Below are positions 4,292 to 43,608 of a stretch of DNA of 64,000 bases, piece by piece. How positions within the stretch are numbered: the stretch's first letter is position 1; each line of letters starts with the position of its first letter. A program made the translations under genes and the position numbers. Below the pieces are notes generated by a model that was not told the DNA's origin, did not search any database, and worked only from the letters and a program-made list of their open reading frames with translations. The stretch lies in IMG/VR virus record IMGVR_UViG_3300015607_004069, positions 1 through 64,000 of that record; one strand, given 5' to 3'. This stretch comes from a virus (lineage: Duplodnaviria > Caudoviricetes).

Positions 4292-6379
4292 TTGAACATG
4301 ATTGAGTCAGAAGTTTTACATGAGCATGAACATGATAAGAAATATTATGGTGTATATCTAGCTAAGGTCGTTGATACAAATGATCCATTGAATGTTAATA
4401 GAATAAGAATAATTTGTCCTGATCTTCATGATTCTAATATCGATCAGAGCATGGCCCAATGGGCTACTTATCTGCCCTTTACCGGGTCGCCTAGAGCGGG
4501 AATGTGGTCTGCGCCTGTCAAGGATGACATAGTCGCCATTTTATTCTTTCATGGTAATCCGAATAATCCTGTGTGGCTGGGTGTTGTCCATCCTACTTTG
4601 CGTAGACATTATCCGATATTTTCACAACATCAGCCAGCACAATTGGCTCTGAACGAGAATGAAGATCCTGACAACAGTAGGCCTGATAGTGATGATTTAC
4701 CATATCTGCCTCGCGATGGCAGGCCGATGGGTGTCGGAATAGCTGATCCTTATGGCAATACGTTATGGATGAGCGGTGTTGGCTTCTTTCCTAGCCAGCA
4801 TAAGGAACGCCCTGCGCCTGTCGGTTCTGACCCAATATCTGGTTTTGAATTCAAGCAATTAAGTGACAACCCAGAAGTCAATGCGCCAGATATGAAGTTC
4901 ATGGCTAGTCTGACAAAATACGGCATGTATACTCTGATGTCTGATTGTGGTTATGAATGGAAGAATAGTGGCGAATACGGTGAGATAGAAGGCGACTATC
5001 TTCTAGATGATCAATTTGAGATTAATAGAGCGAAATATATCAGGAAATTGTTTACTCAGAATCAGACAAGCGGTAGAGATCAGCGACGCTGGCAGGCTGG
5101 CACCAGATACGGTCACATGTTTCTGATGTCTGATGTCGGCTGGGCGCAACCCGGTCCTATGCAATCGAAATCCAGACAGAATGAATATGGCGATCCGAAA
5201 TACCTGTCCAAAGAGACGGTCAGGGATGAGCGATGGATCAAGGTCAGGACTAAGGGAGGGATGCTACGCCAGATGTCTGATGTCGGTCTTGATCCCAATT
5301 TTGACGAGTACATCAAAAGGCTTCCTGATGAGGACATCAACGCTGATTCTGATGCTGATGCCATCTGGAGTGGTCGTGGCGATGCCCGTTTCATCAGAGA
5401 CGTTACCAGATATGGTTTCAAATTCGTCCTGTCAGATGTCGGAGCGGATAAGATAGAGCCGGAAAAGAAGGAAAATCCCAGAGGACAGGGCGTTCTGATC
5501 AAGGGTAGGCGAACAGGAGCCAGTCGGGTCAATAATAGCAAAGAAGGTAAGCCAGTCGGTTTCTACTTCGAAATTCAGGAAGGCAATGATTTTAATAGGA
5601 TGTCTATCGGAACCCCTCTTGGTTCGTTGATTGAATTATCTGATAATTATGAGTATGTCGGTTTGACGGTTGGTGGCGGATACGGCCAAGCCACCAGATG
5701 GGAAGGCACTAAGAATAACGAGTTTACTAGACAGTCTTTAGTTGACATTAATCCCGGTCTAGTCGGCAATATGCTTTTCATGGATAATGAAAATAAGTTC
5801 ATTATGCTTAGATCTAGAAGTGGTGTCGGTCCAGTTCCTGATAACAATACCGTCATCAATGATGATGTCGGTTCCTTCAGAGCCGGTTTCGAGGTTCGCG
5901 ATGGCGATGGTGAGGATGGAGCATGGGTCGAGTTAAATGACTCTGACAATCGTGGTATTTGGATGTCTCGTAAGTATAAGAGTCTGATGCTTCGATCTGG
6001 CAGTGCTTCGGGTAGTCCTACCAAGATGCTGATTGTCATGAATGACGAAGACAACAAGATTTCAATTTTCAATGGCGATCCTAAAGGCAAGATTGAGATT
6101 TATTCTGCTGGCGATTTGCAGGCACGAATAGATGGTGATATGAACGTGGTGGCTCGGAATATCAATATGACCGCTATCGAATCTATTAAACTTAATGGCG
6201 GCGGAAGCATTGTTGAGATTAATAATCAGGGAATGATGACACCCGGCGATATGATGGCTAAGGTTATTCGAGCTGATTTGAAAGACCCGAAGCCGGGTGG
6301 TGTTGCGCCTGATCTTCCTGAGATTGATGAGCCACCTCAGACTATCAGTCCTTCTGATAGGGGTAAAAGATATAACTAG
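4292..6379 (+). CDS. Baseplate central spike/hub, gp5/VgrG-like
   Basis: N-terminal OB-fold motif YLAKVVDTNDPLNVNRIRIICP...P..DD.V...F..G.P..PVWLG; beta-strand repeats; no lysozyme domain recognised. Confidence 0.85.
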   Translation: MNMIESEVLHEHEHDKKYYGVYLAKVVDTNDPLNVNRIRIICPDLHDSNIDQSMAQWATYLPFTGSPRAGMWSAPVKDDIVAILFFHGNPNNPVWLGVVHPTLRRHYPIFSQHQPAQLALNENEDPDNSRPDSDDLPYLPRDGRPMGVGIADPYGNTLWMSGVGFFPSQHKERPAPVGSDPISGFEFKQLSDNPEVNAPDMKFMASLTKYGMYTLMSDCGYEWKNSGEYGEIEGDYLLDDQFEINRAKYIRKLFTQNQTSGRDQRRWQAGTRYGHMFLMSDVGWAQPGPMQSKSRQNEYGDPKYLSKETVRDERWIKVRTKGGMLRQMSDVGLDPNFDEYIKRLPDEDINADSDADAIWSGRGDARFIRDVTRYGFKFVLSDVGADKIEPEKKENPRGQGVLIKGRRTGASRVNNSKEGKPVGFYFEIQEGNDFNRMSIGTPLGSLIELSDNYEYVGLTVGGGYGQATRWEGTKNNEFTRQSLVDINPGLVGNMLFMDNENKFIMLRSRSGVGPVPDNNTVINDDVGSFRAGFEVRDGDGEDGAWVELNDSDNRGIWMSRKYKSLMLRSGSASGSPTKMLIVMNDEDNKISIFNGDPKGKIEIYSAGDLQARIDGDMNVVARNINMTAIESIKLNGGGSIVEINNQGMMTPGDMMAKVIRADLKDPKPGGVAPDLPEIDEPPQTISPSDRGKRYN

Positions 6380-10315: not shown

Positions 10316-10951
10316 ATGCAGCGTTCGCTTAGATCATTTCAACGAAATAATCATCCACTAAAAATAAATAACTCGACTGATATTAGAAAGACTTATCACT
10401 ATCAGAATTATACTGCCTTTGCTAGAAAGGCAGACATGATAGCCAAAGATGCTAAGTGGCCTGAAGTCGTGATGTTGGCGTTTGTAGATTATTGTTCTTT
10501 TCAGGTGGTTAAGAGAAAGCTGATTCGTAATGGCATTGGCTCATTACTGCAGGATGCCTTTCTGGCCGAATGCAAGATGAAATTTGAACGTGCCAGAGCC
10601 GAATTGGTATCATCTAAAGCCGCGATAATGAAATCTATAGCCAACTTGCATAAAGAGCATATGAACAGCAAAATCAAAGGATTACCACTGGACAGGTATC
10701 TAACCTCGCCAGCAGTTGGATTGGCCAATATTACTAAATTGTGCAGAAATGGTGGAATTGATGAATTGACTATAGCATGTCATAAAGTATGTAGGTTTGC
10801 TGTTAGAACGGTGCGAAGCAGAGATGCTATTCAAGCAAAGATGCTGCCCAGCGAGCAAATTCTAGATTCGGCTGTCTCAAAAGCGAAACAGCGACTAGGC
10901 CAGCAACTACTTATTGAGTTGTTTGGTGACCAACTTTACACAGGAGCATGA
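10316..10951 (+). CDS. Hypothetical protein
   Basis: ORF track 10226-10951, ATG 10316 preferred; ATGA-coupled to nrdJ. Confidence 0.6.
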   Translation: MQRSLRSFQRNNHPLKINNSTDIRKTYHYQNYTAFARKADMIAKDAKWPEVVMLAFVDYCSFQVVKRKLIRNGIGSLLQDAFLAECKMKFERARAELVSSKAAIMKSIANLHKEHMNSKIKGLPLDRYLTSPAVGLANITKLCRNGGIDELTIACHKVCRFAVRTVRSRDAIQAKMLPSEQILDSAVSKAKQRLGQQLLIELFGDQLYTGA

Positions 10952-13900
10952 GCGTGCGGATTCAACGACGTTTTACCGATACTGCCGTCAAACCAGTAGA
11001 TAGCATCAAATACGAAATCAGAAAAAGCAAAGGACAGAATGCGGAAGTGCCGCATTGGTGGTCACAGGTAGCCACTGATATTCTGGCTTCGAAATATTTC
11101 AGGAAGCGTGGTGTTCCTAATAAAGTAGTTCATCTGACAAATCAGGAAATACGAGAAAAATTTCCACACATTCAAAACGATCTGGCACTTGATTCACTAC
11201 CATACAAATTCAGACCGAGCAAGCCAGCACCAGATGCCGTTTTTGCTGGCGAGTCGAGCATTAAACAAGTAGCTCACAGGCTGGCCGGATTCTGGACTTT
11301 CAGTGGCTTGATGAACAATTATTTTGAATCGAATGAACAGGCGAACATTTTCTATGATGAAGTCTATCATACTATTGTTTTCCAGATAGCCGCTCCTAAC
11401 AGTCCGCAATGGTTCAACTCTGGTTTATGGTGGGCCTATGGCATAACTGGACCGGCGCAAGGTCATAGTTACACCGACCCGGATGGTGAAGTTCATAAAT
11501 CAACCGATGCCTACTCAAGGCCTGCTCTTTCCGCCTGCTTTATTCAGAGCGTCAATGACGATCTCGTCAACCCCAATGGTATCATGGACTTATGGGTTAG
11601 AGAAGCCAGAGTGTTCAAATACGGCGGTGGCTCCGGAACGAATTTCAGCAAGATCAGAGCAAAGAATGAAAAGCTCTCTGGCGGCGGGTCATCCGGTGGT
11701 CTGATGTCCTTTCTGAAGATCGGTGATCGTGTAGGAGGATCAATCAAATCTGGCTCTACCACACGACGCGCGGCTAAGATGGTCATTCTGAATTCTGACC
11801 ATCCGGATATTGAAGAGTTCGTGTCTTGGAAGGTGCATGAAGAACAGAAAGTAGCCGCCCTTGTTACTGGCAGTAAAGCCATAAAGTCAGCTACTCACGG
11901 AATCATGGATGCTTGTAATGGCAACTATGAGGCCGATAAGAACCCAAAGCTGAAGAAGGCAATTCTGAAGGCACGAGAACTTAATGTCCCAGACAATTAC
12001 ATCTTCCGAGCTATTGAGTTAGCCAAGAACGGGTATAAATCGTCAGAGGTCGAGATAGAGGTTCTTGATACACAATGGGAAGGCGAGGCATACGCTACAG
12101 TTAGCGGACAGAACAGCAATAACTCTGTTCGTGTTACCAATGAGTTCATGCAGGCTGTAGCAGATGATTCAAAATGGAATCTGATTGAACGAACCACTAA
12201 TAAACCAGTCAAATCGATCAGTGCCAAGAAGCTATGGCGGAGCATTGGCTATTCCGCATGGGCCTGTGCTGATCCCGGTCTTCAGTTCGATACGACTATC
12301 AATGATTGGCATACTTGTCCCAATGACGAGCCGATTAATGCTAGCAACCCATGCAGCGAGTATATGTTCATTGATGACACGGCATGCAATCTGGCATCGA
12401 TTAATCTGGTAGCCGTTGGCGATCCCCGCAATGGCTGGTCAGAATATTGTAAATCCTATGAGCAGGCCATTCAGATCTGGACGATAGTCCTTGATATCTC
12501 GGTGGGTAGTGCTCAATACCCAAGCGATCTGATAGCCAAGAAATCATGGCAATATAGAACCCTTGGTCTTGGGTATGCCAATCTCGGTGCATTGTTGATG
12601 CGGCTTGGTATTCCCTATGATAGCGAACGGGCATGCACTACGGCATCAGCTTTAACGGCCATTATGCAGTACGCCAGCTATCTGATGTCCCATGATATAG
12701 CAGCGAGATTGGGTGCGTTTCCGCAGTATACCAATAACGCCAAGTCGATGATCAGGGTAATAAAGAACCATTTGGCTATGGTCGATACAGGTCATCGCTC
12801 ATTTGAAGGCCTGTCTATAGAACCAAAGCCAATCAATTTCAGTCACATCAATACTGAATTGGCAGAATATGTCATAAGCCTTTCCGAGCGGTTGGAATCT
12901 GTCGATCCTCATGTTGGTTTCCGCAATGCTCAAGTGACCGTGATTGCTCCTACTGGAACTATCGGGCTGGTGATGGATTGCGACACTACGGGTATAGAAC
13001 CAGATTATGCTCTTGTAAAGTTCAAGACTCTAGCTGGCGGTGGGAGCTTCCTGATTATCAATGAATCTGTACCACCGGCATTGAAGAACTTGGGCTACAG
13101 CGAAGCTCAGATAGCCGACATCACCAAATACTGTCTAGGCACACGTGCGTTCGACCATCATAAATTGAACCGTGATAAGATGCTGCTATTAGGAATAACC
13201 CATGCTTCCTGTGTAGCATTGACAAATTCACTGCCTAGCCTGTATGACATTGAATATTTAAATCTCGGTCTGCTGGATGATGAATCGAGGAAGGCATGCA
13301 ATCTGAATGAGAATTCAAGACCAAAAGATTTCTTTGCCTTATTTGGTTTGACTACCAATGAGGATATTAGAAACGCAAATGCTCACATCTGTGGGACCTC
13401 TACTATTGAGGGCGCGCCGCATTTGAAAGAGAGCGATTATCCGATATTCGATTGTGCCAACAAGTGCGGCAGAAACGGCAAGAGATTTATCAGGCCTTTG
13501 GCTCACGTTGATATGATGGCCGCTGTTCAGCCATTGATCAGCGGGGCTATCTCCAAGACGATAAACATGCCTTCTGATGCCACTGTAGAAGATGTCCTGA
13601 ATGCTTATTATTATTCATGGCGAAAGATGATTAAAGCTGTTGCTCTCTATCGTGATAATAGCAAGCTTAGTCAGCCCTTGCAGTCTGGTGATTTGATTAG
13701 CGTGGTTGATGATGCTGCAATGGAAGTGGCAAAAGAGATCAAGAGGCATGTTGCTGTGCGACGCAATGTGCCATGGAGACGGTCAGGTTACACTCAGAAG
13801 GTCAGGTTTGGCGGTCATACTCTCTATGTCACTACCGGAGAGTATGAGGATGGTCAGCTTGGTGAGGTCTTTTTGACTATGGCCAAGGAAGGGTCTGCTT

Positions 13901-14394
13901 TCCGTGGCTTGCTGAATGCATTTGCCGTGGCGGTGAGCATTGGCTTGCAGCATGGTGTTCCTCTTGATGAGTTCTGTAAGGCCTATCTATTCAATAAGTT
14001 CGAGCCTAATGGTGTTGTTCAAGGTCATGACAAGATCAAGATGACATCATCTATGGTTGATTTTATCTTCCGTGATCTGGCGATTGCTTATCTCGGTCAG
14101 CACGATTTGGCTCATACTAACAAGATCACTATCAAGGATCTGGAAGTTGATGCCCTGCCTAAGACCGATTCTGATCATGAGATAGACTTCGGTATTCAGA
14201 TCAGTGCGAATGGGAATGGAAAGCACCATAATAACAATAACAACGGGGCGACTTTGGCGACTCTGCCCGTAAATCGAATTAGAATGCCGGGTTATGAAGG
14301 CGAGGCATGTCCTGATTGTCATTCCTTGACAATGGTTAGGAATGGGACATGCCTGAAATGTGCCAAATGTGGTGCTACTTCTGGATGTAGCTAG
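10948..14394 (+). CDS. nrdJ: Class II (adenosylcobalamin-dependent) ribonucleotide reductase with TSCPD domain
   Basis: [44 protein letters not shown]; TSCPD-like GEYEDG.LGEVF region; C-terminal CPDC...CLKC.KCG zinc ribbon. Confidence 0.95.
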
Positions 14395-15185: not shown

Positions 15186-18122
15186 ATGATATTTAATATC
15201 GTTGATAACTTGGATGTTTTTGTCACTCAGGCACCAGCGAATCATCTGGCTGCTATAAACAAGTATTTCACCGTTTCCTTAATAGATTGTGGCAAGAGAT
15301 ATTTTGGTCATACCAACCAGTCTCCGGTCGTCAATTTCTTTGATTTTAACAAGGGCAGAATCAATTTACAGTTGCTGCCTGATTTGATTAAATTCTGTGA
15401 TAAATCTGGTTTTCCTTATCAGATTGTTGATTCTCGTCCAGAATGGCCACATCAGTCTTTGACAGCAGATCAAATTGGTCCGGATTTTCTAGCTGGAATT
15501 GCATTAGAAAGCTATCAGCTAAGATGCATTCGTGCTGCCTGCGATGCGGATTTTGGAATTATAGATGCAGTGACTGGTAGCGGTAAATGTATCGTTGGAG
15601 AATCAAAAGTTGTTGTCAATGGAGTAGAATGTGAAATAGATCAATTGTTTTTAGGTGTTGAGCCAGAGCAGATAGTAGATGTTTCCAAAAGAAAGCTTTA
15701 TGTTTTTGGGCCAAATGGTCACTTAAAGATAAATGCTCTTTATAAAACTGGTAGACGTAGGATATTAAAATTGACGACTGAAAATGGTGCTGAGTTGAGA
15801 GGGGTTCATGAACATCGGATTTATACTAAACGAGGCTGGGTTCAATTAAAGGATTTGAAGAATGATGATGAAACCCAAATTCACCCAGAGCTATGCATTG
15901 GAAATAGGAATAAAGCCGTATATTACAAGAAGAATGTGGAAGAGAGCGGGCAAGAGACGTGGGCAGATGAGAGCAGCCCCATTTGTCAGTTCGTTGTGTG
16001 CATTGTGCGAGAACAGATTCGAGAAGTCTCTGAGAACATTCATTCACGGAGTAGAGCATTTCAAAAAGCCGCTTTGCCAGAGATGTACATCGTCTCAAGC
16101 TACGAAAGAAAATGTTGCGGCGAATCGGCACAAACATCGGAAGAATTGGGATCGCTTTGTTGCCATTTCGAGAGCCGCGAATCCGATGAAGAACAAAGAG
16201 ACAGTAGAGAAAGTCTTGCAAACTTGCAGTCAGAGGTATGGTGTCAGAGTAGCGGCCAATGTACCATGGGCAGACAGGTCTATGGCGAAAATGAAAGAAT
16301 TGCAAACGAAAAAGATGAACGGTACTTTGCCAAATTCGGTGATGGTAATAAAGAAATTCAGAAAAACAATGGCTGCGAAATCAGCAGAAGAGATAGCAGC
16401 GATAAAAACCGCCAAACTGCAGACGTGGCACAAGAATCACCAGACAGCGGATGCTATAGACGAGTTATATGCGCGAGTTCACAGAATTCGAACCAAGCAT
16501 GTGGATACGAGATTTGGAGTTCTGGCTTACCAGAGCCAATTAGAATTGAAATTCATAAGACTATGCGAAGACTTGAGTCAAGTTCAAATGATTACAAGAG
16601 GTCCGACTATCAACCTAAAAAATTCGTGGTACTTGTCAGACTTTTTAGTGAAGACAAAGACCAAACAGATGATAGTAGAGATAAAATCGAAGTTTTTATT
16701 CATTCAGAAGAAAATGAGTGTCTTGTTGAAGAAGAAAGCGGCAATGAGGTACGCGAGAATACAAAATATGGAGTATCATTTGCTGATTTGCTCAAAATCA
16801 GCAGAAATGGCTTCTGTGATGGCGAAAATTGGTCTAGAGTAAGGAGTATTGAAAATGATGGGGTTGAATACTGTTATGATTTTCAATTGGCCGATCCATC
16901 ACATGCTTATTGGACAAATGGAATATTGTCTCATAACACTGAAATGATGGCCGCTATCTGTAAAATGAATCCCGGTTGCAATACGGTGATTCTGTCGGAA
17001 CAGCGAGTCGTTATCGAGCAGATTTCTGAACGTTTACAGCTTCGTGATGTGAAAGACGTTGGTCTGTTTTATTCTGGTAAATCGCCAGACGGGCAGTCGA
17101 TTGTCATTGCCTCGGTTCAGTCATCTACTAAGATTAATAAGACCAATGTTGAAAAGCCGATTCAGTCGTCTTATAAGACGGTTGATGCTTATGTGAAAGC
17201 GTTGACTAAGTATGAATCGATGATGACTGGATTCAAGAATAGAAATATCAGGGCAGAAGAATTACGGGACATTATAAAGCAAGCCGACATGCTTTTGGTT
17301 GATGAGTGTGATCTGGCTGTGAGTTCCATGTATCGGTCGATACTGAGAATATTTTTTAAAGGCCGTAAGCGATATGGCTTCACTGGATCTGTCTTTGATA
17401 AAGACAAGAAGCTGCAATCGATGAAAATGCGGTCGTATCTTGGACCGATTATCGCTAGGGCTTCCAGAGAGGAAGTGCTGGCCGCTGGTCGAATAAATGA
17501 TGTAAGATACACCATGATTGTCTTCACTGGTGCTCCAGAGGAAGTTCATGATTCATCTATGCTTAATATTGCCATAGATGAAAAATTGACGGCCAATATC
17601 AAGTACCACAAGTTATTGAATGGTCTTTGTGATTTTCATGTGGATGAAAAAACGTTGATTCTGGTAGAAAGCAAAAAGCTAGGTGCTGCTCTTGAAGAAT
17701 ATATTCCAAATTCGGTTTTCATCTGTGGCGATACTAGCTCTAAGGCTAGAAATGCTGCTGTGGAGAAGTTCAGAACTGGTGAAATCAAGATTCTGATTGG
17801 CGGTAAGATTCTTAAGAGGGGATTTGATTTGAAAGGCGGTTTCGACAACATTATCTTGTCTACTGGTGGAAAATTAAGTTCTGATTTTAGACAGAGGCTG
17901 GGAAGAGGATATAGGCGAAGTGCGCGTGGATATACTAGAATATATGATTTCATGTTTCGAGTTAATAAATATCTTTATAGTCATTCTCGTGAGAGATTGA
18001 AGACAATAGTCAAGCTTGGTATAAAGACTGTTGTGATATACCCAAATGGATTCAAAATAGATGGCGCAGACCTCGTCAAACGCAATTTCAACGTTGGTAA
18101 AAACTGGCGACAAACCAGTTAA
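15186..18122 (+). CDS. uvsW: UvsW-like superfamily 2 helicase precursor containing an intein in Walker A
   Basis: After removing aa 135-584: TGSGK/T Walker A, LLVDECD, GFTGS, RQRLGRGYR helicase motifs. Confidence 0.85.
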   Translation: MIFNIVDNLDVFVTQAPANHLAAINKYFTVSLIDCGKRYFGHTNQSPVVNFFDFNKGRINLQLLPDLIKFCDKSGFPYQIVDSRPEWPHQSLTADQIGPDFLAGIALESYQLRCIRAACDADFGIIDAVTGSGKCIVGESKVVVNGVECEIDQLFLGVEPEQIVDVSKRKLYVFGPNGHLKINALYKTGRRRILKLTTENGAELRGVHEHRIYTKRGWVQLKDLKNDDETQIHPELCIGNRNKAVYYKKNVEESGQETWADESSPICQFVVCIVREQIREVSENIHSRSRAFQKAALPEMYIVSSYERKCCGESAQTSEELGSLCCHFESRESDEEQRDSRESLANLQSEVWCQSSGQCTMGRQVYGENERIANEKDERYFAKFGDGNKEIQKNNGCEISRRDSSDKNRQTADVAQESPDSGCYRRVICASSQNSNQACGYEIWSSGLPEPIRIEIHKTMRRLESSSNDYKRSDYQPKKFVVLVRLFSEDKDQTDDSRDKIEVFIHSEENECLVEEESGNEVRENTKYGVSFADLLKISRNGFCDGENWSRVRSIENDGVEYCYDFQLADPSHAYWTNGILSHNTEMMAAICKMNPGCNTVILSEQRVVIEQISERLQLRDVKDVGLFYSGKSPDGQSIVIASVQSSTKINKTNVEKPIQSSYKTVDAYVKALTKYESMMTGFKNRNIRAEELRDIIKQADMLLVDECDLAVSSMYRSILRIFFKGRKRYGFTGSVFDKDKKLQSMKMRSYLGPIIARASREEVLAAGRINDVRYTMIVFTGAPEEVHDSSMLNIAIDEKLTANIKYHKLLNGLCDFHVDEKTLILVESKKLGAALEEYIPNSVFICGDTSSKARNAAVEKFRTGEIKILIGGKILKRGFDLKGGFDNIILSTGGKLSSDFRQRLGRGYRRSARGYTRIYDFMFRVNKYLYSHSRERLKTIVKLGIKTVVIYPNGFKIDGADLVKRNFNVGKNWRQTS
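15588..16937 (+). mobile_element. Intein (450 aa) in helicase P-loop, with an out-of-frame endonuclease gene in its insertion slot
   Basis: Starts CIVGESKV after GSGK; block B-like GVHEHRIYT..GW..LKDL; ends YCYDFQLADPSHAYWTNGILSHN followed by Thr(+1). Confidence 0.92.
15862..16842 (+). CDS. Putative homing endonuclease (Zn-finger, helical DNA-binding repeats, C-terminal PD-(D/E)xK/TnsA-N-like domain) in the +1 frame inside the intein
   Basis: 326 aa; CALC...CQRC; NPMKNKETVEK..QT...RYGV; YQSQLELKF...YLSDFLV...IVEIKS...KKKAA..YA....EY nuclease pattern; AAGGA upstream of the ATG. Confidence 0.8.
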   Translation: MMMKPKFTQSYALEIGIKPYITRRMWKRAGKRRGQMRAAPFVSSLCALCENRFEKSLRTFIHGVEHFKKPLCQRCTSSQATKENVAANRHKHRKNWDRFVAISRAANPMKNKETVEKVLQTCSQRYGVRVAANVPWADRSMAKMKELQTKKMNGTLPNSVMVIKKFRKTMAAKSAEEIAAIKTAKLQTWHKNHQTADAIDELYARVHRIRTKHVDTRFGVLAYQSQLELKFIRLCEDLSQVQMITRGPTINLKNSWYLSDFLVKTKTKQMIVEIKSKFLFIQKKMSVLLKKKAAMRYARIQNMEYHLLICSKSAEMASVMAKIGLE

Positions 18123-21100
18123 GCCAAAGGTTATGTATTTTGTCAATGAAAAAGTCGAATACGCCTTAACAAAATACATCTGGTCTGGCTGTACTGACGT
18201 GGCATTGCGTGATATGGTTATGTCGAACGCATCAGAGCTTATCAGGCAAGTCATTAAGAAACAGGGTCTGGCTGAGATCTATCCCGGAAAAGAAGAGTCG
18301 TCCTTAGGCGATCTGCACCAGATAGCTTGGTGCGTTTGTCCTAACACTATTATTATAACCAAATCCGGCATACAGCCGATGTATGAGATGTTTTGCCCAT
18401 CAATATATCATATTAGTGGTGGCGGTGTGGTGCCGATTAGTGATAGTCAGCGTAATGGTGAAGAACCCGTTGTGTGTCCCGGAAAGGCTGTCGATGTTTT
18501 CGGTTATCATGGGCTAAAATCGACAACTGACTTTTATCTCAATTTGCATAATCAGCCTGTTCGAAAAGTAACGTCAAAATACGGATACAATCTGATCTGC
18601 AGTTTGGACCATCCACACCGGGTTTTGACTAAATCTGGAATCAAGAGCATTCCGACCAAGAAGTTGAAAATTGGTGATTTGGTTGGCGTTCAATATAATC
18701 AACAGTGTTTTGGTAATCAGGATGATATAAACTTCGTTCCGAAGACTACTGGCGGCACCACTAAAGATTGGAATCCTCCAACCAAATGGACTCCTGATCT
18801 TGCATATATTGTTGGGCTGTTAATTTCAGAAGGATCACTGGAAAAGTATAGGACTGTCATTTATAATGCAGATCAGGCGGTCATTGATAGATTGCAAAAT
18901 AACTCTGTCGGCCTTGAATTCAAGTATGATGCAAGCAATATATCTAGCACGACTCATTGTCGTCGATTTGCTGAGTTCCTTGAATACATTGGTTTGCATC
19001 AGGGAATGCATTCTAGTACCAAGATGATACCGCAATGTATGTTGAAATGTTCTAAGGAAATTATTGTCGAGATGCTGAGAGGTATGTTCGATGGCGATGG
19101 ACATTCTAACAAGAATATCGGTGTAGTCGGATACTCGTCATCGTCTCCGGAATTGATAGAAGTTCTTCGGGTTTTGTTGCTTAATTTTGGCATCGTCTCG
19201 AAGACTTCTTATAGCGAACGCGGATTATGTCCGAATCCTAAGGGTGGTATGTCTGAGAGACTGCCAGAATACCAACTGCTGTTGTCGTCTGAAGACTCTG
19301 CTAAATTCTACCAATCTATTGGGTTTGGTATTCCTTATAAGCAGGTAAAGGCGAAGAGCTTAACATCGCAACCATGGTTATTGATTGACAAAATAACAAC
19401 AAAACACTTGCAAGATGTTCTGAGGGATGTCAGTCCTGCCACTATTCGCAGAGTCACAGGATTTAAGAAGCGAAACCTTGTTAAAGGCAAGCAAATGCGA
19501 CTGAACACATTTGCTCATGTAGTTATAACTCTTGAGTTAAACCAGACCGATAGGTTTTTGGCTAATAGATTATCTGAGTATATTGGTAATACTGATGACT
19601 CAAGTAAGATGATCTGGTTGCCAGTCGAGGATATCGAAGAGCGTGAAAATCAATTAGTAGTTGATATTGAAGTGCCAGATAGTGGAACTTTCACTGCCAA
19701 TGGTATTGTGACATCAAATTGCCAAATTGAACGTGTGCTTTACAAATTCAGATCCTACCCGCATTGTCGTGTCTGTTTTAATCCAGATAGACCGCCAGAT
19801 TCCTTGCTCTACTGTCAGGATGATAATGAATATGGCATTGTTATGATTGAAGAGCTGCTGGAAAATGGCATTAGCAAATGCCCTAATTGTGGAGCTGTAT
19901 TGAGTAATGACTATTGTATCGAGCCAGAGACAGGGATTTATGGTGGTTCACCTACCGTTCTTTATCGTGGTCCGTCCAAATTGTTTAACATGTGGTGTGT
20001 CAGCCCTGAGACTATGCTGTTAACCAGCAATGGTATTGATACAATTGGAGACGTAGTTAGTTATTCTAATGCTTATCCGCCTAAAGTTTATGGTCCGTGT
20101 GGATTGCAGCCTGTTAATGGTGTACTATCCAAACCAGAAACAGCAACTAGAATCATCAAGACTCTGCTCGGATACGAGATCGAATGTTCTCCAGAGCATG
20201 GATTATATAAGCTTGAAAATGGAATTCCGACTAGAGTCGAGGCAGATACGTTAAAAGCAGGTGACTTGCTTGGAATTCAGTTTAACCAGCAGTTATTTCA
20301 AAATCTTGACTCATTAAAAGACCTGCCAAAATATGACACATGGAATCGGCCAGATTTAATGACAGATGAACTGGCTTATATTGTCGGTCTGTTTGTGGCG
20401 GAGGGATCATATTCCTATGGTAAATTGGTAATATATAATATTGATCGTGACGTGATCGATACTTTGGTGAAGAATACTTTAGGTCTAAATTTTATCCACG
20501 AGCCGCAATTTCAAAGAGTGTCGTTGTGCAATGTTGAATTTATTGATTTTATGATCAAATTCGGATTCCCTGAACGGACTGAAGCCACAACAAAGATGAT
20601 TCCGCGACGTATGCTTTTGTGTTCTAGAGAATTGATAGCAGCATGCTTACGTGGGATGTTTGATGGCGATGGGCACTCTATTAAGCACAATGGTTGTGTC
20701 GGCTATACGTCTACTTCTAAGAAGCTGACAGCTCAAGTGCGAATGTTATTGTTAAATTTTGGTATCTTGACCAAAATAAGCTATGATAAACGAAAAATTA
20801 GAAAGTTTATTAAGAAGAAAACTGGTAGAATGTATGTGAGTAAGTTAGCGGAGGCTGCTCAGCTTTTGCTTTCGGCTTCTGATTCAAAGAGATTTTATGA
20901 AAAAATCGGATTTGGTATCGATAGAAAAGCAGTCAATGTCGATGGTCTGACTGAGAATAACAAGGAATTTCATTATTGCTTTAATGACCACTTTAGAGCA
21001 TTGTATGCGAGATATGGATGTGGTTCCCTCGGCTATGATTCGATTAGACGAGCCATCAGGACCAATCATTGTACTGTCAAATCGGCAATCGCCGCTTTGG

Positions 21101-21720
21101 AATCGTGGAGCGAACATGGGACTGATGCTGACGTTGTGGCTATTAAACAGAGAATTGATGAGATCACACGTTCACAGAACAATATCAAATGGTTGCCGAT
21201 CAAATCAATCAAAGATGGTTCCAGCAAACTAGTTGAAATCAGTATAGATCATGAAAGCCATGCGTATATTGCCAATGGCATATGGTCATCGAATAGCCAG
21301 ATTAGCAAGACAGTTATTTTAGCTCACATCAAAAAGGATTCGCGTGATCGTGTCAAAAAAGGTTTTTCGATTTATCGTAGCCATTTGAGACATAAAAGTG
21401 CGAGAAAACATCGTAGCAATATTACTGACAAGTCAGTTATTGAACAATTTGTGGAAGATGTCCGATTGGCGGTTAAACATGACAGTCGGTTTGACCAGTT
21501 ACCTGACTGTTTACTGGCTCTGGCTATGAATGATTCCAATCCTTATATGAACATCACTAATAAGTTAACCGATCTTTCTGGTCTGCCTCGTCAGACTATT
21601 AAATCATTTATGATGACGATTAAAAATATGTCTGGATCTTTTGTTTTGCCCACTGAGATATCAAAAATGCCGTCTTGGATGACCGAACATCAGCATCAGG
21701 AGAATGAAGATGCAGAATAA
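18061..21720 (+). CDS. Probable gp55-like late sigma factor precursor with two inteins (spliced product about 323 aa)
   Basis: Spliced extein MYFVNEKVEYAL..Y...DLHQIAW/CQIERVLYKF...KLFNMW/SQISKTVILAHIKKD resembles sigma70 region 2 / T4 gp55; lies just upstream of the terminase genes. Confidence 0.6.
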   Translation: MAQTSSNAISTLVKTGDKPVKPKVMYFVNEKVEYALTKYIWSGCTDVALRDMVMSNASELIRQVIKKQGLAEIYPGKEESSLGDLHQIAWCVCPNTIIITKSGIQPMYEMFCPSIYHISGGGVVPISDSQRNGEEPVVCPGKAVDVFGYHGLKSTTDFYLNLHNQPVRKVTSKYGYNLICSLDHPHRVLTKSGIKSIPTKKLKIGDLVGVQYNQQCFGNQDDINFVPKTTGGTTKDWNPPTKWTPDLAYIVGLLISEGSLEKYRTVIYNADQAVIDRLQNNSVGLEFKYDASNISSTTHCRRFAEFLEYIGLHQGMHSSTKMIPQCMLKCSKEIIVEMLRGMFDGDGHSNKNIGVVGYSSSSPELIEVLRVLLLNFGIVSKTSYSERGLCPNPKGGMSERLPEYQLLLSSEDSAKFYQSIGFGIPYKQVKAKSLTSQPWLLIDKITTKHLQDVLRDVSPATIRRVTGFKKRNLVKGKQMRLNTFAHVVITLELNQTDRFLANRLSEYIGNTDDSSKMIWLPVEDIEERENQLVVDIEVPDSGTFTANGIVTSNCQIERVLYKFRSYPHCRVCFNPDRPPDSLLYCQDDNEYGIVMIEELLENGISKCPNCGAVLSNDYCIEPETGIYGGSPTVLYRGPSKLFNMWCVSPETMLLTSNGIDTIGDVVSYSNAYPPKVYGPCGLQPVNGVLSKPETATRIIKTLLGYEIECSPEHGLYKLENGIPTRVEADTLKAGDLLGIQFNQQLFQNLDSLKDLPKYDTWNRPDLMTDELAYIVGLFVAEGSYSYGKLVIYNIDRDVIDTLVKNTLGLNFIHEPQFQRVSLCNVEFIDFMIKFGFPERTEATTKMIPRRMLLCSRELIAACLRGMFDGDGHSIKHNGCVGYTSTSKKLTAQVRMLLLNFGILTKISYDKRKIRKFIKKKTGRMYVSKLAEAAQLLLSASDSKRFYEKIGFGIDRKAVNVDGLTENNKEFHYCFNDHFRALYARYGCGSLGYDSIRRAIRTNHCTVKSAIAALESWSEHGTDADVVAIKQRIDEITRSQNNIKWLPIKSIKDGSSKLVEISIDHESHAYIANGIWSSNSQISKTVILAHIKKDSRDRVKKGFSIYRSHLRHKSARKHRSNITDKSVIEQFVEDVRLAVKHDSRFDQLPDCLLALAMNDSNPYMNITNKLTDLSGLPRQTIKSFMMTIKNMSGSFVLPTEISKMPSWMTEHQHQENEDAE
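18331..19719 (+). mobile_element. Intein 1 (463 aa) with LAGLIDADG homing endonuclease
   Basis: CVCPNT start; CSLDHPH block B; LAYIVGLLISEGS and MLRGMFDGDG; ends VVDIEVPDSGTFTANGIVTSN + Cys. Confidence 0.92.
19996..21294 (+). mobile_element. Intein 2 (433 aa) with LAGLIDADG homing endonuclease
   Basis: CVSPET start; ECSPEHGL block B; LAYIVGLFVAEGS and CLRGMFDGDG; ends SHAYIANGIWSSN + Ser. Confidence 0.92.
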
Positions 21721-41949: not shown

Positions 41950-43608
41950 TTAATCTGATGTAGGCGGTGGTGGTAATGGTGGTGGCGGTGGTGGTACTGG
42001 TGGCGGAGGCGGTGGAACAGGCGGTGGAACAGGTGGAGGAACAGGTGGAGGAACAGGTGGAGGAACAGGTGGTGGAACAGGCGGTGGAACAGGTGGAGGA
42101 ACAGGAGTGAATGGTGGTGGAGGGACTGGTATAAATGGAGGTGGCGGCGGCGGTACCACAGTTGTTGTCGGTACAGGAGGCGGCGGCGGAAACGGCGGTG
42201 GAAAAGGCGGAAACGGCGGTGGAAAAGGCGGAAACGGCGGAAAAGGCGGTGGCACTGGTGGCGGCGGCACCGGTGGCGGTGGTGGAAACGGTGGAAAAGG
42301 CGGTGGCGGCACCGGTGGCGGGAACGGTGGAAAAGGTGGAAACGGTGGAAACGGCGGTGGTACCGGTGGTGGTACCGGTGGTGTTGGTGGCACTGGTGGT
42401 GGAAACGGTGGAAAAGGTGGTACCGGTGGAAACGGTGGAAAAGGTGGTGGCACCGGTGGCGGCAATGGTATTGGCGGTATTGGTGGTGGCGGTACTGGAG
42501 GCACTGGCGGTGGCGGCACTGGAGGCACTGCTGGTGCTTTTGGTTCATCGCCGCAGCTTATACTAGCCGAACATGCAAACAGCTCATTGGCTATGTTGCC
42601 CAGATTTTGTCTTGCTTGGGCATCAATATTGTTGATATATTCGCGTAACGCTGTATTCCAAGAATCTGTCAGCTGATTCAGCTTGTCATAATAGAAATTG
42701 ACTACGCTAGTAATATAAACTGACAGGCGTACGGCTGATATTGTTGTGACACCACCATCTGTACCATCTGGTAGTCTAAGGACAAAACAGTCAATTGGCA
42801 ATGAGTCGTTGATTGGTCTTACCAATTGCCAATCTTTAATGGTTGTGTTTTTTGCGTTTGAGTATATTATTGATCTGATGAGTGGTGTAGTGTTCCCAAA
42901 TTGTGCTGGTGTGTTGATGTCGGGTAGGGTGACAGTGCCTATGATGGCTTGAATGCTGCATCCGTCTGATGTGGTTTTCAGGTCCAGAAGTGATGTCTTA
43001 TGAAGACCGTCCAGAGTTTGAATCTCTATTTCTTCTATGGGTGATTCTGTGGTGGTGTCTTCGCCTTGATCACCCTGTAGTCCGACTGGTGTCAGATACA
43101 TTCCGCTGCGTCCTGCTGGTCCGTCTTCTCCTTGATCGCCGTCTTCTCCCTTTGGAGCCGGAATCTGATAGCATGCTGTATTTAGAAAGAGGTCGCTTAC
43201 CCTGATTGTCATACCGGATGTTCCGGCATTATCCTGAATCTGGATGGGGTTTCTAGCGCAGTTTTCTCCTGTGGACGATTTGGCGATTGTGGTCGTGCTA
43301 CAGTCGATAGTCAGACTGTTTGATCTTAGAACGATGTTGCCTGAAATAGCACCAGTTGGATTACTACCGCTTTGATTTAATAGCGATTGGCTGGTTAGTA
43401 ATCCGAAGCCACCGGGGTGGGATGGCAAGCCGTCAATGAGGGCTTTATCTATTGATTTGAGCAATCCACTAGTGGTTTCCGTAGCTGCGCCTATTTGCTG
43501 GACTGCACCTGTCCATTGCCATGTTCTAGTTTCTAGATTGTATACCCAGCGATTGCGCAGGGCATCGATAAACTCTTGTTTGTCAAATGGGTTGGTAGGC
43601 AGTGGCAT
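41950..43608 (-). CDS. Collagen-containing fibre-like protein with about 195-aa proline-rich C-terminus
   Basis: KGEDGDQGEDGPAG collagen motif; LPTNP and AATETTSGLL..IDK N-terminal motifs; PPPV/PPF repeats. Confidence 0.75.
   Translation of the reverse strand: MPLPTNPFDKQEFIDALRNRWVYNLETRTWQWTGAVQQIGAATETTSGLLKSIDKALIDGLPSHPGGFGLLTSQSLLNQSGSNPTGAISGNIVLRSNSLTIDCSTTTIAKSSTGENCARNPIQIQDNAGTSGMTIRVSDLFLNTACYQIPAPKGEDGDQGEDGPAGRSGMYLTPVGLQGDQGEDTTTESPIEEIEIQTLDGLHKTSLLDLKTTSDGCSIQAIIGTVTLPDINTPAQFGNTTPLIRSIIYSNAKNTTIKDWQLVRPINDSLPIDCFVLRLPDGTDGGVTTISAVRLSVYITSVVNFYYDKLNQLTDSWNTALREYINNIDAQARQNLGNIANELFACSASISCGDEPKAPAVPPVPPPPVPPVPPPPIPPIPLPPPVPPPFPPFPPVPPFPPFPPPVPPTPPVPPPVPPPFPPFPPFPPFPPPVPPPPFPPFPPPPPVPPPPVPPPFPPFPPFPPPFPPFPPPFPPPPPVPTTTVVPPPPPPFIPVPPPPFTPVPPPVPPPVPPPVPPPVPPPVPPPVPPPVPPPPPPVPPPPPPLPPPPTSD
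41956..42540 (-). repeat. Low-complexity 9-12 bp tandem repeats encoding PPPV/PPF
   Basis: Repeated GGTGGAGGAACA and GGCGGAAAC/GGTGGAAAA units on the + strand. Confidence 0.9.

Follow-up and report, generated by a model that had tools for sequence, protein, structure and literature searches.

How one stretch of phage DNA can keep two long reading frames open at once, one running the whole length of a helicase gene and the other encoding a different protein inside it, was the question raised by the helicase locus of an environmental phage. The window analysed here is the first 64 kb (64,000 nucleotides) of IMG/VR virus record IMGVR_UViG_3300015607_004069, a record of 181,658 bases estimated to be about half complete, and its gene content includes a T4-type portal, baseplate genes, a class II ribonucleotide reductase and a dCTP deaminase. 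In this window, an intein interrupts an SF2 helicase, and the central part of the intein contains a nuclease gene in the +1 frame. We conclude that this is probably a mobile intein of a phage SF2 helicase whose homing nuclease is carried as a separate, overlapping gene.

The helicase open reading frame (ORF), which like all features of this locus lies on the plus strand, extends from 15186 to 18122, encodes 978 amino acids in one continuous frame and matches Helicase_C, ResIII and phrog_16. Its Walker A motif is split by the intein. The N-extein (15186-15587, 134 amino acids, ResIII/Helicase_C, XPB/UvsW-like) ends with the Walker A residues GSGK and is followed by a Cys codon (TGT) at 15588; 450 residues on, the intein closes with ILSHN (Asn codon AAC, 16935-16937) in front of Thr at 16938, which is the +1 nucleophile and the first residue of the 394-amino acid C-extein (16938-18122). 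The N-terminal splicing part (15588-15861) comprises Cys1, block A and block B (...EHRIYTKRGW), and the C-terminal splicing part (16843-16937) comprises blocks F and G (...YDFQ...SHAYWTNGILSHN). Between them, a +1-frame ORF of 326 amino acids (15862-16842) starts at ATGATGATG, a triple ATG, with a Shine-Dalgarno-like AAGGA (15849-15853) located 8 nucleotides 5' of it within the intein codons L-K-D. This ORF starts after the first 91 amino acids of the intein, right behind block B, and stops 31 residues short of the intein end, just before blocks F and G; it occupies the canonical endonuclease slot of the intein. An initial annotation of this DNA, made from the letters alone, had proposed the same coordinates (intein 15588-16937, +1 gene 15862-16842) and splicing ends, and had pointed out that the start and stop of the +1 gene match the borders of the splicing domains; all of this holds on recheck.

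A stop in the host frame, that is, the frame of helicase and intein, arises only where a codon starting with AA, AG or GA (risk codon) comes directly after a nuclease codon that ends in T. The nuclease gene contains 102 risk codons, and none of them (0/102) is preceded by a T-ending codon, as against 63 of the 224 other codons. The initial annotation had correctly noticed that no risk codon follows a T, but its count of about 77 such codons fell short of the full 102. The absence of host-frame stops contrasts with expectations of 19.8 from codon shuffles and 17.5 from synonymous permutation, and zero stops were obtained in 0 of 20,000 trials of either kind. The third frame of the nuclease region has 37 stops, and in the 99 large ORFs of the phage the corresponding shadow frame has stops at a density of 9.3 per 100 codons. 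No other shadow run in the 181.7-kb genome is as long as the 327 codons of the +1 run in the helicase, the runner-up having about 200. The observation is thus confirmed, and chance falls far short of explaining it. The second-longest shadow ORF (41950-43608, minus strand) was considered as a second dual-coded element and rejected, as it is a collagen-repeat gene; about 200 codons are open there in both shadow frames, no Pfam family was found for it, and triplet repeats would explain the openness.

A search with the 978-amino acid product found helicases of 964-995 amino acids that aligned end to end, and three loci were added from a metagenome scan. The six lineages thus defined are the window together with L007, L005, L006, L014 (the same as P0036, with which it shares an identical C-extein), L015 and L016; across them, the C-exteins are 42-71% identical and the nucleases 38-50%. 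A nuclease homologue lies in the +1 frame of the same slot in six of six lineages, with an open frame of 298-373 codons in five of them, and L005, L006, L007, L014, L015 and L016 each have 0 host-frame stops where 13-18 were expected. When the six lineages were pooled, pyrimidine-ending nuclease codons were 148 C and 0 T before risk codons, versus 177 C and 364 T elsewhere (Fisher p = 5e-59). Because synonymous sites are saturated between lineages, this stop-avoidance signal has been kept up in each lineage and not merely inherited. NNT and NNC always encode the same residue, and for this reason a synonymous C is always available to prevent a host-frame stop, without cost to the nuclease. From the genetic code, the overlap should therefore cost the nuclease nothing in the +1 geometry, and the 148:0 split is exactly such a choice.

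Metagenome assemblies may in general contain assembly or sequencing indels, which the initial annotation had also considered, and such errors could in principle have displaced a nuclease that is really in frame with the intein. The probability of this explanation is close to negligible: the frame layout agrees in seven independent assemblies, an independent metagenome contig from another study covers 15400-17100 and differs by 11 substitutions but no indel, and the absence of stops from the second frame would have no explanation if the nuclease were in frame. Metagenomes of wastewater and activated sludge from several studies contain the same sequence; among public runs, those with near-identical copies of the region 15400-17100 come from wastewater, activated sludge and sludge, and partly from soil. 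The phage thus seems to be widespread in engineered water systems.

The two frames differ in how they evolve. Between the window and L005, amino acid identity is 49% for the nuclease but 25% for the same DNA read in the host frame, the latter being close to the 16-20% found when ordinary exteins of similar divergence are read in their shadow frame. At the three codon positions of the nuclease, nucleotide identity was 0.59/0.65/0.39 in this pair, the pattern of a real gene. Between the window and L007, which are 96% identical, 38 of 47 differences outside the overlap fall at helicase third positions, and 18 of 36 inside the overlap fall at nuclease third positions; rough values of the ratio of non-synonymous to synonymous substitution rates (dN/dS), a frame-specific comparison that the initial annotation had called for, were 0.25 in the nuclease frame and 0.62 in the host frame. 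Contigs from other studies provided 15 distinct overlap variants, 10 of them synonymous for the nuclease and 5 not. The nuclease-synonymous variants are mostly non-synonymous in the host frame, several being radical (G357S, R409C, G422R, S531P), and the overlap variants from these studies introduce no stop in either frame and no indels. Judged from these comparisons, protein-like evolution is confined to the nuclease frame: selection acts on the protein encoded in one frame, and in the other only against stops. The earlier proposal that both frames are under selection is borne out by the 0 stops against 17-20 expected, by the frame-specific substitutions and by the five further diverged lineages, the latter being the homologous inteins with nested ORFs for which the initial annotation had suggested a search.

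We also analysed the product of the +1 frame, which is a basic protein of ordinary globular composition. As the initial annotation had stated, it has two CxxC pairs, which form a zinc ribbon (C46/C49/C72/C75, about 15997-16086), and an E...D...ExK motif, and it further contains helical modules and a TnsA-like PD-(D/E)xK domain at residues ~210-326 (16489-16839). The putative catalytic residues are E228 (16543-16545), D260 (16639-16641), E273 (16678-16680) and K275 (16684-16686); in a 27-sequence alignment, D260, E273 and K275 were invariant and E228 was conserved in at least 90%. Against Pfam DUF7487 (PF24308), the window nuclease scored 27.0 bits for a cut-off of 27, that is, right at threshold, and the homologues P0001-P0012 scored 37-199 bits; it also matched the Pfam family TnsA-like N. 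An exhaustive phmmer search of 1.84 billion representatives returned 32 nuclease relatives (best E 1.5e-26), nearly all DUF7487, the closest database match having 32% identity and belonging to a fractured locus, in which the gene is annotated. Because gene callers keep only the long ORF, out-of-frame nucleases are missing from protein databases.

AlphaFold with the 27-sequence alignment gave a predicted local distance difference test (pLDDT) score of 77.7 overall, about 95 for residues 210-326 and about 85 for the pair of zinc-ribbon hairpins (41-80); a prediction from the single sequence reached a pLDDT of 35 and was unusable. A TnsA-N/PD-(D/E)xK fold had been anticipated for the +1 frame, and TnsA was indeed the top structural match of the model. 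Foldseek placed Tn7 TnsA first (E 1.4e-4, probability 1.0, 124 columns), the top matches of the fold searches being TnsA, VRR-NUC, Hjc, Bax1 and Can2, and VIA-align ranked TnsA (Z 9.6, root-mean-square deviation 3.4, 117 residues) ahead of VRR-NUC, Bax1, Hjc, I-Bth0305I (Z 6.2) and Vsr (Z 6.1). In the model, the E...D...(D/E)xK motif is placed on a restriction-endonuclease-like alpha/beta core, as in the PD-(D/E)xK superfamily. On the basis of homology and predicted fold, the +1 frame encodes a real protein, a predicted nuclease of PD-(D/E)xK type.

Elsewhere, relatives of this nuclease are encoded by stand-alone genes of phage contigs, with gp13 or GIY-YIG/T5orf172 genes as neighbours, which is how free-standing homing endonuclease genes typically occur. 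Apart from free-standing DUF7487 genes (L008, L009), alignment-based scans of viral contigs yielded nothing but related inteins of other layouts (L010-L013). No match was obtained in a word-based protein search with the nuclease, which reaches close relatives only, in blastn of the gene against phage GenBank entries, or in single-protein scans of viral contigs, and no paralogue of the nuclease was found in the phage's own genome. A metagenome scan with nuclease motifs found none, and a scan with intein motifs yielded loci. A literature search found no paper on DUF7487.

An AAGGA followed by ATG precedes the nuclease in L006 and L007 as in the window, and L014 keeps an ATGATG start with no AAGGA before it. 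RNA folding of the region surrounding the nuclease start, in four lineages, gave z values of -0.40 to +0.43, with no sequestering hairpin, and in a scan for sigma-70 promoters and terminators promoter-like sites were rarer than in shuffles, none being placed to serve the nuclease gene. These start signals bear on programmed ribosomal frameshifting, by which the nuclease would be fused to the intein as a conventional in-frame domain. The common strand and the +1 offset would permit it in principle, but we consider it very unlikely, given that start signals of its own precede the nuclease in these four loci, that ribosomes would then have to change frame once more to translate the C-terminal splicing part, that there is no significant RNA structure at the junction, and that frameshifting leaves the stop-free host frame across the whole overlap unexplained.

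The intein frame shows the features of a class 1 intein, namely the Cys nucleophile after GSGK, the block B His, a penultimate His, a terminal Asn and the +1 Thr. Across the lineages, C1, H76, Y79, T80, G83, W84, D431, H439, H449 and N450 are invariant, the +1 extein residue being Thr, or Ser in L005 and L016, and the 31-amino acid remainder after the nuclease stop is also found in L005, L007 and L014. The N-terminal splicing part has weak matches to DnaB mini-inteins in the PDB, and the relative P0038 carries the intein profile PF14890. In the intein-less relatives P0034 and P0035 (59-62% identity), the sequence GAGK/TE (the slash marking the insertion site) is uninterrupted, and removal of the intein restores a contiguous, conserved host protein. 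Between the two splicing parts, the host-frame reading of the nuclease DNA (15861-16841) is a stop-free hydrophilic linker of about 325 amino acids, without a recognisable domain as judged by Pfam, PDB sequence search, conservation and composition, and unconserved as protein. In line with the earlier remark that no LAGLIDADG or HNH motif is present in the intein frame, neither these nor any other Pfam domain was found there. The grand average of hydropathy of the linker is about -1.0 in five of the six lineages and -0.69 in L016, with about 57-66% disorder-promoting residues, and it is probably disordered.

A maximum-likelihood tree of the exteins placed intein-bearing alleles scattered among intein-less ones. 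Each intein-bearing allele was sister to intein-less ones with 97-100% support, as follows (pairs of support values in parentheses): the window with P0034/P0035 (100/100), L006 with P0071 (99/92), L016 with P0064 (100/99), and the split locus L002, described below, with P0040/43/44 (97/97). This scattering fits spread by homing or repeated loss. Together with the position of the gene in the endonuclease slot and the free-standing relatives near homing endonuclease genes, it lends indirect support to a putative function of the nuclease as a homing endonuclease. In the mechanism that we propose, ribosomes starting at the helicase ATG would read through to give a 978-amino acid precursor consisting of N-extein, splicing part, disordered linker of about 325 amino acids, splicing part and C-extein, from which the intein would splice out in cis to leave a 528-amino acid helicase. 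Ribosomes starting at the internal AAGGA-ATG would read the +1 frame and produce the 326-amino acid basic zinc-ribbon/TnsA-like nuclease, which would most likely cut intein-less helicase alleles of co-infecting relatives near the GxGK/T codons; repair after cleavage would then copy the whole element in (homing). We infer cis-splicing, independent translation, cleavage specificity and active homing, and it is plausible that a free-standing nuclease gene invaded a mini-intein out of frame.

One lineage departs from this scheme. In L006 (3036-4054), a deletion of about 17 codons removes the D...ExK motif and leaves a stop at the junction, the rest of the nuclease frame and the intein frame being open, which suggests that the nuclease was inactivated recently and that the intein itself is still intact; this is the decay stage expected in a homing cycle. 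Since the host frame has stayed open after nuclease loss, the constraint on it is independent of the nuclease. Stops in homologues, which according to the initial annotation would have spoken against its proposal, are absent from the intein frame of all six lineages, but the L006 nuclease frame does have one. The +1 ORF could then be a dying relic in the window as well, with no nuclease made or active and only the helicase frame selected, since a stop there kills the helicase. L006 exemplifies such a state, the L016 nuclease has lost an internal module, and the window/L007 dN/dS of about 0.25 in the nuclease frame means only moderate constraint. We nevertheless regard a relic as unlikely, considering that the window ORF is intact with E228, D260, E273 and K275 at invariant or nearly invariant PD-(D/E)xK positions, that synonymous variants outnumber non-synonymous ones by 10 to 5, that third positions are the least conserved over deep divergence, that five of six lineages keep the long open nuclease frame and that the element is scattered among intein-less alleles.

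The best homologue of the nuclease, P0001, lies in the syntenic loci L002-L004 (reductase, ..., helicase, ..., NUDIX), which have the same insertion site (GGGK/C ... SHN/T) and the same +1 offset as the window. There, the helicase is encoded by two genes, one of 233 amino acids with a stop after the N-terminal splicing part and one of 441 amino acids with a Met before the C-terminal part, the arrangement of a fractured gene, which the window does not have. The former host frame of L002 contains 51 stops versus 48 expected, and its codons before risk codons show no bias (16 C and 51 T, p = 0.32); free-standing DUF7487 genes have 29-61 stops in the corresponding frame. This split sibling is a natural negative control for stop avoidance. 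Its layout, with the same site and the same nuclease frame, might also suggest that the host frame of the window is not read through, that two half-proteins trans-splice and that the open frame is incidental. This is extremely improbable, as the window has no stop after the N-terminal splicing part, and the zero stops in six lineages (p = 5e-59) count against it because only read-through translation would select for them.

With read-through of the host frame as the preferred reading for the window, the relation between the two forms can be considered. At the homologous place in its +1 frame, L002 has the start context ATGATGAA, which reads MMK, then a stop, and the present start follows a few codons downstream. 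The shared site, offset and nuclease family and this MMK relic suggest one element in two states. A single change to T at the third position of a nuclease codon would introduce the first stop into the host frame, and stops would then accumulate to the neutral expectation. The direction from two-frame to split form is favoured because one mutation suffices, whereas the reverse needs about 50 changes without intermediate gain. That the contiguous and split forms are one element in two states, with the split form derived from the two-frame form, is tentatively proposed here, at somewhat less than an even chance; alternatively, the two forms arose by independent invasions of one intein family by related nucleases.

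Several observations weigh against an intein that carries an overlapping homing nuclease gene. The window intein has no Pfam intein match (450 residues, E <= 1), and a PDB phmmer search gave only weak matches to DnaB, VidaL and GyrA inteins (E 0.03-0.6), confined to the splicing ends. The nuclease sits exactly at the DUF7487 cut-off (27 bits); in L005, it has no ATG at the homologous start and must begin upstream, and in L006 it is without its catalytic core, which means that the nuclease is not kept everywhere. No RNA run is among the public runs listed for the region. On the other side, homology, fold, substitution patterns and the five further lineages support the core of the initial annotation, namely a nuclease of free-standing type overprinted in the +1 frame of an intein frame that is kept open.

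The initial annotation had implied that such an architecture was undescribed, which is not the case, as out-of-frame intein endonucleases already appear in preprints of 2025-2026. Two preprints describe out-of-frame or antisense intein nucleases of endonuclease VII-like, LAGLIDADG and Vsr-like type (bioRxiv 10.1101/2025.01.02.630785; bioRxiv 10.64898/2026.09.14.751524), the first of them citing Gorbalenya 1998 for an antisense case. As in Gosselin 2025 (bioRxiv 10.1101/2025.01.02.630785), whose authors propose invasion of an intein by a free-standing nuclease gene, the nuclease in the window lies in the endonuclease slot off the frame of the intein, the intein frame is open, and its in-frame reading has no recognisable fold, with no in-frame domain according to profile and sequence searches and conservation. 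Their nuclease, however, is endonuclease VII-like in 'frame 3', with the others antisense, whereas here a DUF7487/TnsA-like nuclease is in +1, at the SF2 helicase P-loop of T4-like environmental phages and with a split sibling at the same site. Phillips, DeSimone and Gogarten reported an out-of-frame endonuclease in a cyanobacterial dnaX intein (bioRxiv 10.64898/2026.09.14.751524), which differs in residing in a bacterial chromosomal gene, in another host protein and at another insertion site.

In the fractured genes described by Dassa et al. (2009; PMC2677866), split inteins flank a free-standing Vsr-like or GIY-YIG endonuclease gene, with N-half, endonuclease gene and C-half on one strand, mainly in phages. 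L002-L004 are exactly of this type; in contrast, the window host gene is unbroken and its intein frame crosses the nuclease gene. The nuclease family also differs from that of Dassa et al., the window protein having VIA-align Z scores of 6.2 to I-Bth0305I and 6.1 to Vsr against 9.6 to TnsA. The catalytic domain of Tn7 TnsA (PDB 1f1z, 1t0f) is its best structural match and shares the PD-(D/E)xK core, but identity is 18%, and the window protein lacks the TnsC-binding C-terminal domain and the transposon context and has instead a zinc ribbon and helical repeat modules. The ShiLan domain (PMC11855218) is similarly reported to be a homing insertion, in a phage methylase gene, with the host frame reading through and the nuclease hidden off-frame, but it is not identified there as an intein and its nuclease is HNH. 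The architecture is thus known in kind; what is new is that a DUF7487 nuclease fills this role, that the host is this gene in this group of phages, that conservation runs deep and carries a clean codon-choice signature, and that contiguous and split forms exist as a sibling pair.

Related elements were observed at other loci. The gene next to the helicase in the window (18061-21720, 1219 amino acids) contains two LAGLIDADG inteins (Pfam LAGLIDADG_3 and Intein_splicing, two stretches each), and the same gene is present in L007. The class II ribonucleotide reductase of L002 (9-3425) carries a LAGLIDADG intein; in the 1148-amino acid reductase of the window (10948-14394), no intein-like stretch was seen on reading the translation, with no profile search made, and none is listed for the near-identical copy in L007. 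Related phages may thus differ, from one gene to the next, in the inteins that they carry. In L010 (2748-7192), DNA polymerase III alpha is fractured by a related split intein into a PHP domain with the N-terminal intein half, a 335-amino acid ORF, and the C-terminal intein half with the polymerase; no Pfam family is assigned to the middle ORF, and a DUF7487-like ORF lies just upstream (1870-2637). L013 (194-2455) holds a helicase fractured by a split intein in the classic manner of Dassa et al., with a DUF559/Vsr-like nuclease gene between the halves and an N-terminal splicing part related to that of the window intein. A 1877-amino acid ORF in L011 (1590-7220) has an intein with an in-frame HNH domain, downstream of which a nested ORF of 262 codons in another frame (4970-5758) matches HNH (E 3e-5) and may be a second element with an out-of-frame nuclease.

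Collectively, these results give the uncharacterised family DUF7487 a concrete putative function as an intein-associated homing endonuclease of large environmental phages, and they provide a statistically clean case of overlapping coding that is six lineages deep. The cis and split forms at one insertion site are a matched pair that could be used to test the origin of split inteins and could yield new split-intein reagents. If the split form did derive from the two-frame form, the pair would document how a cis-splicing intein can turn naturally into a trans-splicing one, along a route that is still being sampled; the geometry, with each host-frame stop one synonymous transition away, would be what makes this possible.

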